NCBI GenBank assembly: GCA_963720545.1 | Contig: OY970399.1 | Span: 1,440,001-1,504,000 of the forward strand | Length of the DNA: 64,000 nt | Direction: 5' to 3' | Source: an uncultured Acidobacteriota bacterium | GTDB taxonomy: Bacteria > Acidobacteriota > Vicinamibacteria > Fen-336 | Part shown: one piece after another, positions 1 to 34,319 of the stretch | How positions within the stretch are numbered: the stretch's first letter is position 1 | How the letters are laid out: every line of letters begins with the position of its first letter | The notes under the pieces: generated by a model | What the model was told of the DNA's origin: nothing | The model's input: only the letters and a program-made list of their open reading frames with translations | Databases searched by the model: none | Translations under genes and position numbers: made by a program

Positions 1-231
1 AAGGCGCTGGTCGAGCGCGAGGGGCTGGTGCAGATCAGCGACGTGGCGGCGGTGCAGGAAGCGGTCGACGCGGTCATCGCAGGGAACCCGGACGCCGTGA
101 ACACCTACCGCAAGGGCAAGACCGGCAGCCTCGGCTTCCTCGTGGGCGCCGTCATGAAGCGGACCGCCGGCAAGGCCAACCCGCAGCTCGTGAACACCTT
201 ATTGAAGAGGGCTCTTGACAGCGCCGGCTGA
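1..231 (+). CDS. gatB: Asp/Glu-tRNA amidotransferase subunit B, C-terminal part (truncated by window edge)
   Basis: Open frame from base 1; GLVQISD...YRKGK...GFLVGAVMK...GKANP is the GatB/YqeY C-terminal signature. Confidence 0.93.
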
Positions 232-29324: not shown

Positions 29325-29422
29325 GTTTCGAGTATAGGCCCGCCCCGGTGGCGGTCAAGGCGGTGCTACGATGCGCTCGCTTCGGCTTTCCAGGCTTCAC
29401 GGCTTCACTCGAGGAGGCAAAG

Positions 29423-31549
29423 ATGGCGCAGGAATTCCGGCCGTACGTGCCCGACAGCGAGAACCCGCCGGAATTCACGGCCCGCGCAATCCTGATTGGC
29501 GTCGTCTTCGGCATCATCTTCGGCGCCGTCACCGTCTACATCGGACTGCGCGCCGGCCTCACCGTGGCGGCATCCATCCCGATCGCGGTGCTCTCGATCA
29601 GCATGCTGCGCGCCCTCGGCCGCGCCTCGATCCTCGAGAACAACCTCATCCAGACGACCGGCTCGGCGGGCGAATCGGTGGCGGGCGGCGTCATCTTCAC
29701 GGTGCCGGCGCTCATCTTCCTCGGCTTCGACCTGGAGCTGTCGCGCACCACCATCCTGGCGATGATCGGCGGCCTGCTCGGCGTGCTGTTCATGATTCCG
29801 CTGCGCAAGCAGCTGATCGTGAAGGAGCACGGCAACCTCCTCTATCCCGAGGGCACCGCTTGCGCCGACGTGCTGATCGCTGGCGAGAAGGGCGGCTCGT
29901 TCGCCAGTCGCGTGTTCGCCGGCCTCGGCATCGGCAGCCTCTACACCGCCGTCCAGAATCCGTTCGTGCTGAAGCTCATCAACCCGGAGCCTGCCTACAA
30001 CCCGGGCTGGCTGCCAGGCGCATCGCTCCGCGCCGCGACCACCTCGGAATACCTCGGCGTCGGCTACATCATCGGGCCGCGCATCGCCGGCGTGATCTTC
30101 GCCGGCGGCGTCTTCTCCTGGCTCGTCATGATGCCCGCCATCCGTTTCTTCGGCAGTCTGGTGCCGACGCCGATCTATCCGAGCACCATCCCCATCGGCG
30201 CCATGACCTCGGACGAGCTGTGGCGCTTCTACATCCGTTACATCGGTGCCGGCGCGGTGGCGGCCTCGGGGCTCATCACGCTCGGCAAGACGCTGCCGAC
30301 GATCGTCGCCGCCCTCAAGGCCGGCGCTGCCGACCTGCGCAAGCGCGGCACGGAGTCGGCAGCCGCGGGCGGGCGCACCGACCGCGACCTGAAGACCACG
30401 GTGGTCCTCATCGGTTCGGCCGTGATCACCGCGATGATGTGGGCGTTCCTCACCTTCAAGCCGGTGCCGGGCGCACCCACGGGCCTGTTCGCCAACCTGC
30501 TCGCGGCGGTGCTGGTCGTCATCTTCGGCTTCCTGTTCGTGACCGTGTCGTCGCGCCTCGCCGGCCTCATCGGCACCTCCTCGAACCCGATCTCCGGCAT
30601 GGCGATCGCCACCCTGATGGCCACCTGCGGGGTTTTCTACCTTGTGGGCTGGACCAGCGCCGCGTACGGCGCGCTGGCGCTGATGATCGGCGGCGTCGTC
30701 TGCATCGCCGCGGCCAACGCCGGCAACACCTCGCAGGACCTGAAGACCGGCTTCCTGGTCGGCGCCACGCCGGCGGCACAGCAGAAGGGCCTGTTCGCGG
30801 GCGTCATCGTCTCGGCGCTCGTCATCGCCTTCACGCTGCAGGCGATGAACAAGGCTCTCGAGCAATACGTGCCCGCCGACTTCGCGATCGAAATTGCGGC
30901 GCTGCCCGACGGCGTCAAGGTGAAGGACAACAACTTCCAGCACGACGGCCGCACCTACACGCTGCTGAACGTGCTCGGCTCCAAGACCATTCCCGAGGGC
31001 CTCTACCTGTTGAACCCGCAGACCGGGCGCGTCGAGACGCAGTGGATCCAGGGCATCGGCAGCGCCGCCGCCCCGGCGCCGCAGGCGCGCCTCATGTCGG
31101 TGGTGATCAACGGCATCCTCAACCAGAAGCTGCCGTGGGGCCTCGTGTTCCTCGGCGTGTTCGTGGTGATCTGCGTCGAGCTCCTCGGCATCCGCTCGCT
31201 GAGCTTTGCGGTGGGCTCCTACCTCGCGATCGGCACCACCGCGGCGATCTTCTGCGGCGGTGTGGTGCGCTGGCTGGCGGAGCGCGGCACCGAGAAGCAC
31301 GCGGGTGAGGAAGAGACGAGTTCCGGATCGCTGTTCGCGAGCGGCCTGATCGCGGCGGGCGGCATCGTCGGCCTGCTGGGCATCGGCCTGCAGCTGCTCG
31401 AGACATCCAGCTACATCCCGAAGGGCATGACGAACCTCGGCAAGTACGTCCCGGGCGTCCACGACAGCCAGCTCATCGGCATCCTTTGCTTCGCCGCGCT
31501 CGCCGGCGCGCTCTACCACTTCGCCCGCAAGCCGCTCGCCAGCAAGTAG
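29423..31549 (+). CDS. OPT family oligopeptide transporter
   Basis: EFTARA, GLTVAASIP, ENNLIQT, YPEGTACA, SNPISG, QDLKTG and APQA; GAGGAGG SD. Confidence 0.93.
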   Translation: MAQEFRPYVPDSENPPEFTARAILIGVVFGIIFGAVTVYIGLRAGLTVAASIPIAVLSISMLRALGRASILENNLIQTTGSAGESVAGGVIFTVPALIFLGFDLELSRTTILAMIGGLLGVLFMIPLRKQLIVKEHGNLLYPEGTACADVLIAGEKGGSFASRVFAGLGIGSLYTAVQNPFVLKLINPEPAYNPGWLPGASLRAATTSEYLGVGYIIGPRIAGVIFAGGVFSWLVMMPAIRFFGSLVPTPIYPSTIPIGAMTSDELWRFYIRYIGAGAVAASGLITLGKTLPTIVAALKAGAADLRKRGTESAAAGGRTDRDLKTTVVLIGSAVITAMMWAFLTFKPVPGAPTGLFANLLAAVLVVIFGFLFVTVSSRLAGLIGTSSNPISGMAIATLMATCGVFYLVGWTSAAYGALALMIGGVVCIAAANAGNTSQDLKTGFLVGATPAAQQKGLFAGVIVSALVIAFTLQAMNKALEQYVPADFAIEIAALPDGVKVKDNNFQHDGRTYTLLNVLGSKTIPEGLYLLNPQTGRVETQWIQGIGSAAAPAPQARLMSVVINGILNQKLPWGLVFLGVFVVICVELLGIRSLSFAVGSYLAIGTTAAIFCGGVVRWLAERGTEKHAGEEETSSGSLFASGLIAAGGIVGLLGIGLQLLETSSYIPKGMTNLGKYVPGVHDSQLIGILCFAALAGALYHFARKPLASK

Positions 31550-31559
31550 CTGCCCGCGC

Positions 31560-31595
31560 AAAAAAACCCCGGAGGCGGTTGCCCGTCCCCGGGGT
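31560..31595 (-). terminator. Intrinsic terminator oriented for a minus-strand transcript
   Basis: Minus strand ACCCCGGGGACGG-GCAA-CCGCCTCCGGGGT followed by a T run; no U tract in the plus orientation. Confidence 0.85.
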
Positions 31596-31655
31596 CGGCG
31601 AGCTGATTGGGATTCGCTCGGGTCGCTTGCTTGAGGCTTCTACGAAAGAGCGGCT

Positions 31656-31706
31656 CTAAGCGTCAGCCACCTCGCGCTTTTCGTCCTGTGTGCGGCAACT
31701 ACCCAC
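31656..31706 (-). CDS. Putative 16-aa small ORF MGSCRTQDEKREVADA, or the coding part of a small RNA
   Basis: GTG preceded by AGAAAGGAGGTGGTCCA; own promoter and terminator. Confidence 0.6.
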   Translation of the reverse strand: MGSCRTQDEKREVADA

Positions 31707-31734
31707 TGGACCACCTCCTTTCTCGCGTAGGCGA

Positions 31735-31764
31735 AGTGTAAGGAGCCCTCTTCCCCGTCGGCAA
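31735..31764 (-). promoter_or_regulatory. Sigma-70-type promoter of the small transcript
   Basis: Minus strand TTGCCG-N18-TACACT. Confidence 0.6.
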
Positions 31765-31859
31765 GGGAAAAGTACAGCCGCTGGTGGCTTTAGCGCGCGC
31801 GACGGCAACTAATTGCGCCACTCTCACTCAAGGGAAGCCGCTTCGTGTGGCTGCGATCC

Positions 31860-31889
31860 TTGACACTCGCGCGACCGGCGTGCTACTTT
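31860..31889 (+). promoter_or_regulatory. Sigma-70-type promoter of the MBL-udk-hydrolase genes
   Basis: TTGACA-N18 (ending TGC)-TACTTT. Confidence 0.6.
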
Positions 31890-31936
31890 TCGCGCCTCTA
31901 CAAGTCTATTTGTATGAGGTACTTGGAGCCCATTTC

Positions 31937-32701
31937 CTGAAGCTGAAAGTTCTCGGTTGCTACGGCGGAACCGTACCTGGGAAAGGCATGACCTCGTTCC
32001 TCGTCAACGGCTCCGTGGCTCTCGACGCGGGCTTCGTTTCCGGCGCTCTCACCCTCCGCGAGCAGGGCAAGGTCAAGAACATCGCGATTTCGCACGCGCA
32101 TCTCGACCACACGTGCTCGCTGCCGTTCCTCATCGACAACAACTTCGCGAGCCCGGGCTTCTCGCTGCGCATCCACGCGATCCCCGAAGTCATTGCCTCG
32201 ATGCGCGCGCACCTCTTCAACAACGAGACCTGGCCCGACTTCACCAACCTGCCGAACGATTTCTCGCCGGTGCTGAAGTTCGTGCCCATCAAGGACGAAG
32301 AGCCGGTCGCGATCGACGGCGTGCAGCTGCGCGCCATTCGCGTCTCGCACAGCGTCCCCACCACCGGCTTCATCGTCGAGGACAAGAAAGCGGCGCTCGC
32401 CTATTCGAGCGACACCGGCCCGACCAACCGCTTCTGGGAGGTGGTGAACGCGGTGCCACGGCTGAAAGCCGTCATCACCGAGACTTCCTTCCCCAACGAG
32501 CAGCAGGCGCTCGCCGACGTCGCCGGCCACCTGACGCCGCAGATGCTCGGCCGCGAGCTCGAGAAACTCGAGCGCGACGTGCCCGTATACCTCTACGGCG
32601 CCAAGCCGCGCTTCGTCGACACCATCAAGCGCGAGGTCGGCAAGCTGCGCACCCGCAAGCGGGTGCGCTTCCTGGTTCAGGGCCGCACCTATAACCTCTA
32701 G
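31937..32701 (+). CDS. MBL-fold 3',5'-cyclic-nucleotide phosphodiesterase (class II-like); probable CTG start
   Basis: KLKVLGCYGG, ALDAG, SHAHLDH, HLFNNETWPDF, HSVP, SSDTGPT, ETSFPN and GHLTP. Confidence 0.82.
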   Translation: MKLKVLGCYGGTVPGKGMTSFLVNGSVALDAGFVSGALTLREQGKVKNIAISHAHLDHTCSLPFLIDNNFASPGFSLRIHAIPEVIASMRAHLFNNETWPDFTNLPNDFSPVLKFVPIKDEEPVAIDGVQLRAIRVSHSVPTTGFIVEDKKAALAYSSDTGPTNRFWEVVNAVPRLKAVITETSFPNEQQALADVAGHLTPQMLGRELEKLERDVPVYLYGAKPRFVDTIKREVGKLRTRKRVRFLVQGRTYNL

Positions 32702-32703
32702 TC

Positions 32704-33336
32704 GTGCCCATCATCATCGCCGTGGCCGGTGGCACCGCGTCGGGCAAGACCTCGTTCGCCAACAAGGTGGCCGGGGCGCTGGGAGACGCGCGCTGCCTGC
32801 TGGTCTCGCAGGATGCCTACTACAAGGACGGCAGCATGCTGGGCGCGGCCGAACGCGCCGCGGTCAACTACGACCATCCCGACGCCTTCGACACGCCGCT
32901 GCTGGTGCAGGACCTGCTCGACCTGAAGTCGGGCCGGCCGGTGCCGCACCTGACCTACGACCACGCGACCTACACCCGCGAGGTGCTGCCCGACCCGCTG
33001 CTGCCGCGGCCGGTGATCCTCGTCGAGGGAATACTGGTGCTGGTGGAGGAGCCGCTGCGGCGCCTGTGCGACATGCGCATCTTCATCGACACCGATGCCG
33101 ACGTGCGCATCCTGCGGCGGCTGCGCCGCGACCTCATCGAGCGCGGGCGTTCGTTCGAGTCGGTCGAGCGCCAGTACCTCGCCTCGGTGCGGCCGATGCA
33201 CCTCGAGTTCGTCGAGCCGTCGAAGCGCTATGCGCACCTCATCATCCCGGAGGGCGCCGAGAACCTGGTGGCGGTCGAGGCGGTCGTCGCCCGCGTGCGC
33301 GCGATGCTCGAACGCACCCCGGACCGCACGCCCTGA
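32704..33336 (+). CDS. udk: Uridine kinase
   Basis: AGGTASGKT, QDAYY, NYDHPDAFD, VEGIL, RRLRRD..ERGR and VRPMH..FVEPSK. Confidence 0.95.
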   Translation: MPIIIAVAGGTASGKTSFANKVAGALGDARCLLVSQDAYYKDGSMLGAAERAAVNYDHPDAFDTPLLVQDLLDLKSGRPVPHLTYDHATYTREVLPDPLLPRPVILVEGILVLVEEPLRRLCDMRIFIDTDADVRILRRLRRDLIERGRSFESVERQYLASVRPMHLEFVEPSKRYAHLIIPEGAENLVAVEAVVARVRAMLERTPDRTP

Positions 33337-34319
33337 CGAACGCGTTCCGCCCGTGGCCCTTCGCATCGGGCTCGCACCGCCAGACGCTGCTCGGCTTCCT
33401 GCGGCGGCGCTTCCTCTCCTGGGGCCTGCCGAGCGAAGCGCTCACGACGCGCATCGACGCCGAGAACGGCGTTTGGCTCACGTCGCGGCTGACGCGCGCT
33501 CCCGGCGCCGATGGCGCGCGCCGCGTGCTGGTGCTGCTGCACGGCATGGGCGGCAGCGACGCCTCCACCTACGTCATCGCCACCGGCCGCCATGCCGTCG
33601 CGCGCGGCTGGAGCGTGCTGCGCGCCAACATGCGCGGCTGCGGCGACGATGCGACGTTCTGCCCGCGCCTGTCGCACGCCGGCCTCGCTTCGGACCTGCT
33701 GGCGGTGGTGCGCGAGGCCGCGCAGCGCTTCGAGCACGTCGCGGTCTGCGGCTTCTCGCTCGGCGCGCACCTGACGGCGCTGATGCTCGCGCGCCATGCC
33801 GGCGAGCTGCCGCAAGGGCTCGTCGCCGGCGCGGCGGTGTCGCCGCCGCTCGACCTCGCCGGCTGCGCCGACGCGGTCGGCCTGCGGCAGAACCGCGTCT
33901 ACCAGCGTTTCTTCATGGCGGGCCTGCGCGAGGGATACGCGCGCATCCAGCAGCGCGCCAACGGGCTCTACGAAGCCGGGCGCACCGCCGGCCTGCGCAG
34001 CGTGCGCGAATTCGACGACCGCATCACCGCGCCTTACGGCGGCTTCGGCACCGCCGACAAGTACTACGCGACGAACACCGCCGGGCCGCTGCTGGCGCAG
34101 GTGCGCGTGCCGCTGCTGATCCTCGCCGCGAGCGACGACCCGGTGATTCCGGCGGCGGGCGTCGACCGCTGGGAGCTGCCGGCGGCGGGCAACGTGGTGC
34201 GCGAGATGACGCCGACCGGCGGCCATGTCGGCTTCGTCGGCCGCACCAGGGCGCCGGGCAGCTTCTGGGCGGCGGAGCGCGTCGTCGATTTCATCGACGC
34301 CGCGGAGGCAGCCCGCTAG
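33333..34319 (+). CDS. YheT-like alpha/beta hydrolase; probable CTG start
   Basis: HRQT, LHGMGGS, NMRGCG, GFSLG, SPPLDL, REFDD, DDP and GGHVGF. Confidence 0.87.
   Translation: MTNAFRPWPFASGSHRQTLLGFLRRRFLSWGLPSEALTTRIDAENGVWLTSRLTRAPGADGARRVLVLLHGMGGSDASTYVIATGRHAVARGWSVLRANMRGCGDDATFCPRLSHAGLASDLLAVVREAAQRFEHVAVCGFSLGAHLTALMLARHAGELPQGLVAGAAVSPPLDLAGCADAVGLRQNRVYQRFFMAGLREGYARIQQRANGLYEAGRTAGLRSVREFDDRITAPYGGFGTADKYYATNTAGPLLAQVRVPLLILAASDDPVIPAAGVDRWELPAAGNVVREMTPTGGHVGFVGRTRAPGSFWAAERVVDFIDAAEAAR

Follow-up and report, generated by a model that had tools for sequence, protein, structure and literature searches.

A predicted small mRNA gene with an extended Shine-Dalgarno sequence in an acidobacterium, and its place in the Ms_IGR-5 family

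Introduction

The gene rreB of Bradyrhizobium specifies a 165-nucleotide (nt) small mRNA with an RpoD-like promoter, a terminator and a small open reading frame (sORF) of 14 codons (Hahn et al. 2016, PMC5711450). Its RNA co-sediments with 30S ribosomal subunits, for which the 5′ extension of its Shine-Dalgarno (SD) sequence is required. Translation is weak and barely detectable owing to the long SD sequence and the GTG start, and the half-life of the RNA rose from 10 to 37 min when the start codon was replaced. Twentyfold overproduction of ribosome-binding RNA left growth of Bradyrhizobium unchanged, which the authors held to speak against simple titration of ribosomes. The RreB and RreR peptides were called conserved within their clades, although synthetic RreB and RreR were unstructured and growth was unchanged in a strain expected to overproduce RreB; no function was assigned to rreB (PMC5711450). 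Here we analyse a comparable unit on the minus strand, at positions 31764-31560 of a 64,000-nt stretch of the genome of an uncultured Acidobacteriota bacterium (contig OY970399.1, positions 1,440,001 to 1,504,000). The whole of this stretch is called the window below. A preliminary description, made from the letters of the window only, had proposed a hidden transcription unit at this place, with an 18-nt complement of the 16S rRNA 3′ end and a 16-codon ORF.

Two Rfam families are close to the unit. CC2171 (RF01867) is reported to have been confirmed by Northern blot in Methylorubrum (bioRxiv 10.1101/2022.01.24.477521). Ms_IGR-5 (RF02471) is filed by Rfam as a non-coding 'Actinobacteria sRNA' (small RNA). 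It is reported from Streptomyces RNA-seq (PMC8079986, PMC8780764), and homologues with ribosome footprints are reported from Mycobacterium abscessus and M. smegmatis (PMC4974804). The cloning primer for rreB (PMC5711450, Supplemental Table 2) contains the same 16S-complementary tract followed by GTG TCT, in agreement with the 5′ consensus of CC2171, so that the names rreB and CC2171 appear to denote a single family. No Rfam clan joins Ms_IGR-5 and CC2171, and our literature searches met no paper that takes rre genes beyond the alpha-proteobacteria or ties them to Ms_IGR-5. Outside these families, the extended SD sequence of rpsU (bS21) in Flavobacteriales is also an unusually long SD sequence that is reserved for one transcript and engages the 16S tail. 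It is reported to be the leader of an ordinary ribosomal-protein gene and to serve autoregulation (PMC9976891), whereas the unit in the window would be a stand-alone mini-mRNA with a structured 3′ domain.

Results

A transcription unit that can pair with the host 16S rRNA tail

Reading the minus strand confirmed the promoter, tract, GTG ORF and terminator at the coordinates proposed in the preliminary description:

31759..31764, minus strand: −35 box TTGCCG, read from the strand; TTGNCN in all 16 family copies
31735..31740, minus strand: −10 box TACACT, with an 18-nt spacer to TTGCCG
31706..31723, minus strand: 18-nt complement of the 16S 3′ end (extended SD sequence), AGAAAGGAGGTGGTCCAG
31656..31706, minus strand: sORF MGSCRTQDEKREVADA, GTG plus 15 codons plus TAG (31658-31656)
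31560..31594, minus strand: intrinsic terminator, a bulged G+C hairpin (31594-31567) followed by U7 (31566-31560)

The final G of AGAAAGGAGGTGGTCCAG is also the G of the GTG start (31706-31704), and the terminator hairpin at 31594-31567 is predicted by RNAfold. We infer a transcription start near 31729. A simple consensus scan for promoters and terminators flagged neither the promoter of the unit, which has 8 of 12 hexamer matches, nor the bulged terminator. A 50-codon ORF at 31656-31808, in the same frame as the sORF, was rejected as it begins upstream of the −35 box.

In the host genome (one contig of 4.09 Mb, 68.7% G+C) the 16S gene is present once, and its 3′ end is CTGGATCACCTCCTTTCT. The preliminary description had matched the tract to the 16S end of many bacteria, and the alignment with the organism's own 16S rRNA bears this out: 17 of 18 positions form Watson-Crick pairs and the remaining one is G:U, so that all 18 could pair. 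Two of these pairs, those of the two 5′-most tract bases, would use the two nucleotides immediately past the point (2283080) at which the Rfam small-subunit rRNA match stops, and presume that mature 16S rRNA reaches that far. The computed free energy of the 18-bp duplex is −32.0 kcal/mol, compared with −9.2 kcal/mol for AGGAGG. In a scan of the whole genome with G:U allowed, the tract reached 19 contiguous pairs in register with the 16S tail. Only 18 sites had at least 12 pairs; one of them is the 16S gene itself, and the next best sites had 15, 15, 14 and 14. The match to the 16S tail thus exceeds chance, and is the single outlier of the 4.09-Mb genome. A fragment of a 16S gene was ruled out, as the similarity to 16S ends after 19 nt.

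The unit has the sequence hallmarks of the rre genes. Complementarity of at least 16 nt to the own 16S 3′ end is present here as 17 of 18 positions plus the G:U pair; the tract ends on the base with which the GTG of a very short sORF (16 codons) begins; and a transcript of approximately 165 nt would be framed by its own promoter, kept in all 16 copies described below, and its own terminator.

Conservation within the family

A search for the unit in related genomes had been proposed together with the locus. BLAST with 31540-31780 as query against 40 relatives (24 of the same family, one of a second family and 15 of a third) found it in 16 of the 24 same-family genomes, each of another genus. 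It was absent from the one genome of the second family, and among the 15 genomes of the third only a 24-nt stretch was matched. The promoter form TTGNCN-N18-TA(C/A)ACT was present in 16/16 family copies, with TTGACA in 13 of them; the −10 box was TACACT in 13 and TAAACT in three, and lay 12 nt ahead of GAAAGG in 15 of the 16. All 16 copies had the terminator. The first 25 nt of the RNA and CGCGAGGTGGCTG were invariant or nearly so between genera in which the proteins of the neighbouring genes are 48-73% identical. A close strain in soil metagenome run X4 differed at 31640, at 31746 and by two insertions near 31550-31560, and showed no difference within 31656-31735 (one contig, depth about 4.5). 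On this comparative evidence the unit is a conserved gene.

Relationship to Ms_IGR-5

At gathering thresholds Rfam gave no match over the whole window. A permissive scan of 31350-32050 matched RF02471 at 28.2 bits (E = 1.7e-4 on 701 nt; cut-off 45). Model positions 1-184 of 184 were collinear with 31728-31558, and the elements followed in the same order. The same scan matched RF01867 at 21.7 bits (cut-off 75); at the element in two related genomes (G002 and G009) RF01867 scored 25.4 and 24.7 bits, also below its cut-off. The consensus of both families opens with the same tract. When RF02471 was run against whole genomes it selected exactly the window locus in the host genome, G000 (E = 2.4e-4 per genome), and the matching locus in G001, G006, G007 and G010, and it had no match in 14 control genomes, Corynebacterium glutamicum included. 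RF01867, for its part, also matched a Thermus thermophilus control, below cut-off.

RF02471 scores of the window copy and of other copies were as follows:

Mycobacterium: 172 bits
Micromonospora: 98 bits
Streptomyces: 85 bits
Kineococcus: 85 bits
L178 (locus of the window's phylum): 60 bits
L170 (window's phylum): 50.6 bits
L038 (Acidimicrobiales): 48.8 bits
L049 (titled Acidobacteria bacterium): 47.7 bits
L062: 41 bits
L053: 34 bits
L058: 33 bits
L003 (window's family): 31.2 bits
Window: 28.2 bits

The scores grade without a break, and the same-phylum loci L178, L170 and L049 exceed the cut-off of 45, which links the window to bona fide members. Judged from this continuum of sequence scores, the element is a diverged member of the Ms_IGR-5 family in the broad sense. 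The preliminary description had not recognized a named family. That claim does not hold, given the full-length alignment to RF02471, the relatives in the same phylum that pass the cut-off and the rre hallmarks. By the measure set out there, a match to an Rfam or sORF family, most of the novelty is removed; the unit is, as far as its sequence tells, of an already described class (rreB-type small mRNAs; Rfam Ms_IGR-5) and not of a new kind.

Most homologues were gathered with a pattern of two motifs, AAGGAGGTGRTCC and GAGGTGGCTG, separated by 15-45 nt, taking one genome per species. This gave at least 120 loci, 80 of them titled. Among the 80 titled matches listed, 67 were from Actinomycetota and 9 from Acidobacteriota, with one each from Leptospira, Syntrophobacter (Desulfobacterota), Eisenbacteria and Sumerlaeota. 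The pattern had no match in viral contigs, and BLAST of 31650-31735 against plasmids, on one of which Azospirillum carries an rre gene, returned only four chance matches, at E = 8.

As a gauge of spread within the window's phylum the exact pattern was discarded as too strict, since it matched 3 of 401 sampled genomes. The tract alone, outside a 16S context, was found in 63 of the 401. Matches of a backwards-read control were also scattered across many genomes, and each place was therefore read individually, for 48 of the 68 listed places. A full element was taken to comprise an sORF of 12-19 codons whose stop falls at the fixed distance described below, a partner for helix P3 and a terminator. 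By eye, 22 of the 48 places had it, corresponding to 22 genomes besides G000 and G020; one of these genomes, G149, belongs to the window's class. At one locus (L188, genome G317) the tract and sORF were kept and the 3′ part was different, as in the Bryobacterales loci L055 and L137. The core of another (L154) was nearly identical to that of loci titled Blastocatellia. Other matches of the tract alone were ordinary genes with a long SD sequence. Genome G191, marked as unpublished, was among those matched and is used for no claim here.

Some ordinary genes of the phylum occasionally have a 15-nt complement of the 16S tail (L157/L158, L195 and L155/L169); judged by eye, the encoded proteins start in the manner of ribosomal protein bL12, an HU-type DNA-binding protein and an Fe-S oxidoreductase. 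At L049 a tRNA gene (20-91, minus strand) lies approximately 190 nt from the element. The rreB gene of Bradyrhizobium also adjoins a tRNA gene (PMC5711450).

A four-helix fold supported by covariation

The comparative analysis supports, by covariation, a predicted structure of four helices, P1 to P4. In the window their strands are:

31724..31727, minus strand: P1 5′ strand CGCG, pairs with 31676-31673
31673..31676, minus strand: P1 3′ strand CGCG, with covariation
31708..31711, minus strand: P2 5′ strand GUCC, within the tract, pairs with GGAC
31683..31686, minus strand: P2 3′ strand GGAC
31664..31671, minus strand: P3 5′ strand GGUGGCUG, within sORF codons E-V-A, invariant in 16/16 family copies
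31597..31605, minus strand: P3 3′ strand CAGCUCGCC, 8 pairs and one bulged U
31658..31662, minus strand: P4 base, 5′ strand CGCUU, overlaps U31658 of the stop codon and pairs with GAGCG at 31619-31615
31609..31619, minus strand: P4 base, 3′ strand, with the conserved unpaired GAAUCCC; GCGAATCC, (nearly) invariant in the family

In its general form P1 pairs the four nucleotides upstream of (G)GAAAGGAGG with the four that end at the G of GAGGUGG. In a MAFFT alignment of 130 distinct sequences 91.2% of its cells were paired, and three of the four pairs changed on both sides, one example exchanging between AU (73), GC (31) and CG (13). P2 joins G(G/A)UCC, at the 3′ end of the tract, to GGA(C/U), with G-C (99) alternating with A-U (11). 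For P1 and P2 together the covariation score over the 130 sequences was 0.305, against 0.103 in shuffled alignments, none of 500 of which scored as high; when the partner strand was slid, pairing dropped to 8-51%.

In P3, GGUGGCUG is joined to CAG(U/C)CACC, which lies just ahead of the terminator. Because the two-motif pattern had fixed the 5′ strand of this helix, P3 was tested on copies from the window's phylum found by the tract alone. Reading by script gave five compensatory classes: GGUGCCUG with CAGGCCACC (seven sequences); GGUGGCGU with ACGCCACC or GCGCCACC (five); GGUGGCGG with CCGGCCACC (three); GGUGUCUG with CAGA(C/U)UACC, the CAGAUUACC type (three); and GGUAGCGU with GCGCUACC (one). 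The motif GAGGUGGCUG had been considered as a second ribosome-binding site. That role was discarded: the motif has a pairing partner in CAGYCACC, upstream of the terminator, with which it co-varies.

P4, formed by CGCU(U)AG.. and ..CUGGCG, encloses a variable domain whose length ranges from 7 to more than 150 nt. Its 5′ strand contains the stop codon, GAAUYCC is unpaired after the helix, and P4 pairs change on both sides (alignment A3). Over all 24 pairs and 55 diverse sequences, 84.2% of cells were paired, compared with 77.9% in shuffles and 34-44% with the partner slid, and the covariation score was 0.230 against 0.128 (0 of 500 shuffles as high).

The fold is shared in part with both described families. 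Ms_IGR-5 has the 5′ GGAAGGAGGUGGUCC, GAGGUGGCUG, the CGCUAGC/GCUGGCG helix, GAAUYCC, CAGYCACC and the terminator, all within the full-length collinear alignment. It differs in that the P4 domain of the window copy, itself below the cut-off, is shorter, and in that the first helix drawn by Rfam (GGUGGU with GCUGCC) is not the P1/P2/P3 arrangement supported by covariation. With rreB and rreR the unit shares a transcript of approximately 165-170 nt (predicted for the window) with its own RpoD-like promoter and terminator, a stretch of 16-18 nt complementary to the 16S 3′ end that ends in the G of GTG, an sORF of 14-18 codons, and a tract whose 3′ part is base-paired within the RNA while its 5′ part is free. 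It differs from them in phylum, in its RF01867 score and possibly in its 3′ architecture: P3, P4 and the GAAUCC loop may not be shared, as there was no alpha-proteobacterial record among the 80 titled matches listed with the second motif, GAGGUGGCUG. Only for rreB have binding of 30S subunits, weak translation and a dependence of decay on the start codon been shown.

Masking of the tract by an internal anti-SD sequence was rejected as a general feature: over 89 sequences the median native duplex was −12.9 kcal/mol, compared with −14.1 kcal/mol in shuffles. It holds solely for the window's own family, and there without the window copy. At L003 (1554-1781) and 11 other family loci (L004, L006, L007, L010-L013, L015-L017, and L005 by eye), an extra domain of approximately 100 nt inside P4 carries a conserved (A/C)CUGGAU(A)GCCUCC that looks like the 16S tail. 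This look-alike can pair with the 5′ tract, at −18 to −24 kcal/mol compared with −14 to −16 kcal/mol in shuffles. In L003 the minimum free energy (MFE) structure uses this pairing (z = −4.25). Neither the window copy nor L008 or L009 has the look-alike; a comparable CUGGACCACCU occurs in Acidimicrobiia copies. In one clade of the window's phylum (L181, L183 and L192, the last of the window's class) the second motif reads GGAGGUGGCGUCC; this resembles a slightly altered repeat of the 5′ tract, and inspection by eye shows no obvious P1.

The reading frame is kept and the peptide is not

Among 131 distinct homologues, 126 have the stop codon exactly 15 nt after the G of GAG, and 127 have an in-frame start behind the SD sequence with no intervening stop, against 8 and 10 in the other two frames. 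The stop is TAG in 110, TGA in 11 and TAA in 8, in varied sequence contexts, and the start is ATG in 51, TTG in 41, GTG in 27 and CTG in 10. Lengths run from 9 to 19 codons, 12 being commonest (88 of 131), and within the family they vary by whole codons (12, 13 and 16). At nine Acidimicrobiia-type loci (L038, L044, L047, L060, L094, L113, L120, L123 and L146) the usual place offers CTG as its sole in-frame start, in the position of the window's GTG.

The encoded residues behave differently from the frame. Residues 2-7 differ between genera within the family. Across the family, the conserved last six codons carry one replacement (GAC to GCC) and not a single synonymous change. The residue after E-V (A, P, S or V) changes together with its P3 partner, and in L186 E-V has become K-V. 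The preliminary description had offered a very strongly initiated micropeptide as one explanation and a comparison of peptide with RNA structure as the check. These counts favour the RNA, whose fold and ORF frame are kept while the peptide varies, and the peptide sequence is not the conserved part. A fixed frame and stop combined with a variable peptide point to selection on the RNA, on ribosome docking and on the act and geometry of translation, and not on the peptide.

That the 16-residue peptide is nevertheless the product that matters, the RNA being a mere messenger with an odd ribosome-binding site, seems to us improbable. The start, frame and stop kept in 127 of the 131 homologues would suit it, as would the clade-wide conservation of the RreB and RreR peptides (PMC5711450). 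Free variation of residues 2-7 even within one family does not, and in the conserved C-terminal codons it is the nucleotides that are kept, every third position and the Ala codon GCU among them. Where these codons do change, the residue is altered (A, P, S, V; E to K) and the change is compensated in the partner strand of the RNA. The behaviour of synthetic RreB and RreR and of the expected RreB overproducer (PMC5711450) also speaks against it.

The opposite explanation is a purely non-coding decoy or sponge for 30S subunits, with an ORF that is a structural by-product and never meaningfully translated. A very long SD sequence should impede clearance of the ribosome, translation of rreB is barely detectable (PMC5711450), the duplex is worth about −32 kcal/mol and the RNA structure is conserved. 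Yet start codons shift within the P2 loop and stay in frame, changes in loop length are whole triplets (sORFs of 12, 13 and 16 codons in the family), and TAG, TGA and TAA all appear at a single fixed position in differing contexts. For rreB, moreover, the start codon affects the half-life of the RNA, and the 20-fold overproduced ribosome-binding RNA did not slow growth (PMC5711450). We regard a sponge, too, as having little probability.

Neighbouring genes

Both neighbours of the unit are on the plus strand:

29348..31549, plus strand: convergent gene for an OPT oligopeptide transporter (Pfam PF03169, 289.8 bits)
about 31955..32701, plus strand: divergent gene for a class-II cyclic-nucleotide phosphodiesterase of the metallo-β-lactamase fold (Pfam PF02112 and PF12706, and atlas)

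The nearest atlas clusters of the phosphodiesterase are commonest in Acidobacteriota. The phosphodiesterase adjoins the unit in 15 of the 16 family loci and the transporter in 14. Since both genes are on the plus strand, no minus-strand gene feeds in and the unit stands alone. The preliminary description's view that no other minus-strand gene reads into the unit thus agrees with the annotation, and its view of a dedicated small transcription unit is consistent with the predicted promoter and terminator and with this arrangement.

Discussion

We consider it probable, though by no means settled, that the locus encodes, as a gene of its own, a structured small mRNA of approximately 170 nt, of the class represented by Ms_IGR-5 in Actinobacteria and by rreB, rreR and CC2171 in alpha-proteobacteria, and that it works as follows. 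A housekeeping-type promoter would fire approximately 5 nt upstream of P1, and the transcript would end at its own terminator. The RNA would fold into P1-P4, leaving AAAGGAGGUG single-stranded in the internal loop between P1 and P2, a position that follows from the fold supported by covariation and agrees with the seed model of Hahn et al. (PMC5711450). From this loop AAAGGAGGUG could seed pairing with the free 16S 3′ tail, as the seed model and the 30S co-sedimentation of rreB suggest. Pairing would then spread into the G(G/A)UCC strand of P2 to give the 18-bp duplex, opening P2 and freeing the GUG start. The 30S subunit would be held tightly, making initiation and clearance slow. The few ribosomes that do translate would melt P1, P2, P3 and the base of P4 and would stop at the UAG fixed 15 nt after the GAG codon; in rreB the start codon affects the half-life of the RNA. 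Engagement of ribosomes could in this way be coupled to the conformation and turnover of the RNA. Capture of 30S subunits by such a tract, which the preliminary description had suggested, is experimentally established for the analogous rreB mRNA (PMC5711450), and may by analogy apply here. Sequestration, hibernation and sensing of 16S maturation, the purposes put forward there, are conjectural. Our best guess at the role is that the RNA, bound to the ribosome, signals through its conformation and decay how many free 30S subunits, or how much initiation capacity, are available.

Several points weigh against this reading. In neither Rfam family does the window copy reach the cut-off (28.2 against 45 bits and 21.7 against 75 bits). 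The comparative fold of the window, at −62.1 kcal/mol, is less stable than the unconstrained MFE structure at −71.6 kcal/mol, and the full-length RNA exceeds shuffles in stability only slightly (z = −1.9). Covariation in P3 consists of classes read by script rather than of a formal test, and P3 shows zero double changes in the 55-sequence alignment, where MAFFT misplaces the bulged variants. The invariance of the two motifs carries no meaning in the set gathered by the pattern that fixes them. The lack of alpha-proteobacterial records among the 80 titled matches listed belongs here as well: rreB and CC2171 may be homologues of the window element or only analogues. Overproduced rreB derivatives gave no growth phenotype (PMC5711450). 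Contigs of soil metatranscriptome X20 contained 6% of the sampled words of 29500-33500 and none over 31556-31730, a result that has no weight either way.

A broader form of the same reading is possible, but we would not expect it to be right. Ms_IGR-5 would then make up one ancient family of 30S-docking RNAs together with the acidobacterial element and its counterparts in Leptospira, Desulfobacterota, Eisenbacteria and Sumerlaeota, with a tiny ORF in register with the long-range helix P3, acting as a translation-coupled switch. The stop would be fixed 15 nt after the GAG codon, at which the 5′ strand of P3 begins. Docking would open P2, and a rare translating ribosome would melt P1-P3 and so set conformation and decay, which would make the RNA a gauge of free 30S subunits or of initiation capacity. 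The alpha-proteobacterial rreB would be a diverged branch or a convergent copy.

The RNA might also be a dual-function base-pairing sRNA, in which the unpaired GAAUCCC(AA) between P4 and P3 is a seed for target mRNAs, gated by docking or translation. GAAUCCC is the most conserved unpaired 3′ segment across phyla, the motif AAUCC..CAG..ACC being present in 89 of 136 homologues compared with 5 in a reverse-complement control, and catalogues place both Ms_IGR-5 and CC2171 among the sRNAs. A tertiary contact or a protein site would explain the motif equally well, and no published target was met in the literature, no target search having been made here; we think this explanation unlikely. A chance match, a decayed antisense 16S fragment or the strong ribosome-binding site of an ordinary unannotated gene deserves hardly any credence: ordinary genes of the phylum occasionally carry a 15-nt tract, but the 16S similarity stops after 19 nt, a promoter and terminator of the unit's own are conserved in 16 genera, and the ORF of 12-19 codons is conserved alongside covarying helices.

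If the small-mRNA reading is right, few other natural RNAs would share with this class a design for pairing with all of the free 16S tail. What appears to be new is that the actinobacterial 'non-coding' Ms_IGR-5 has the hallmarks of rre-type small mRNAs, that the family would reach several phyla (Actinomycetota, Acidobacteriota and single records elsewhere), and that it has a four-helix fold backed by covariation, in which the peptide sequence is free while the frame and end point of the ORF are fixed. The focus would thereby shift from the peptide to the complex of RNA and ribosome, for which Streptomyces and M. smegmatis would be tractable hosts.

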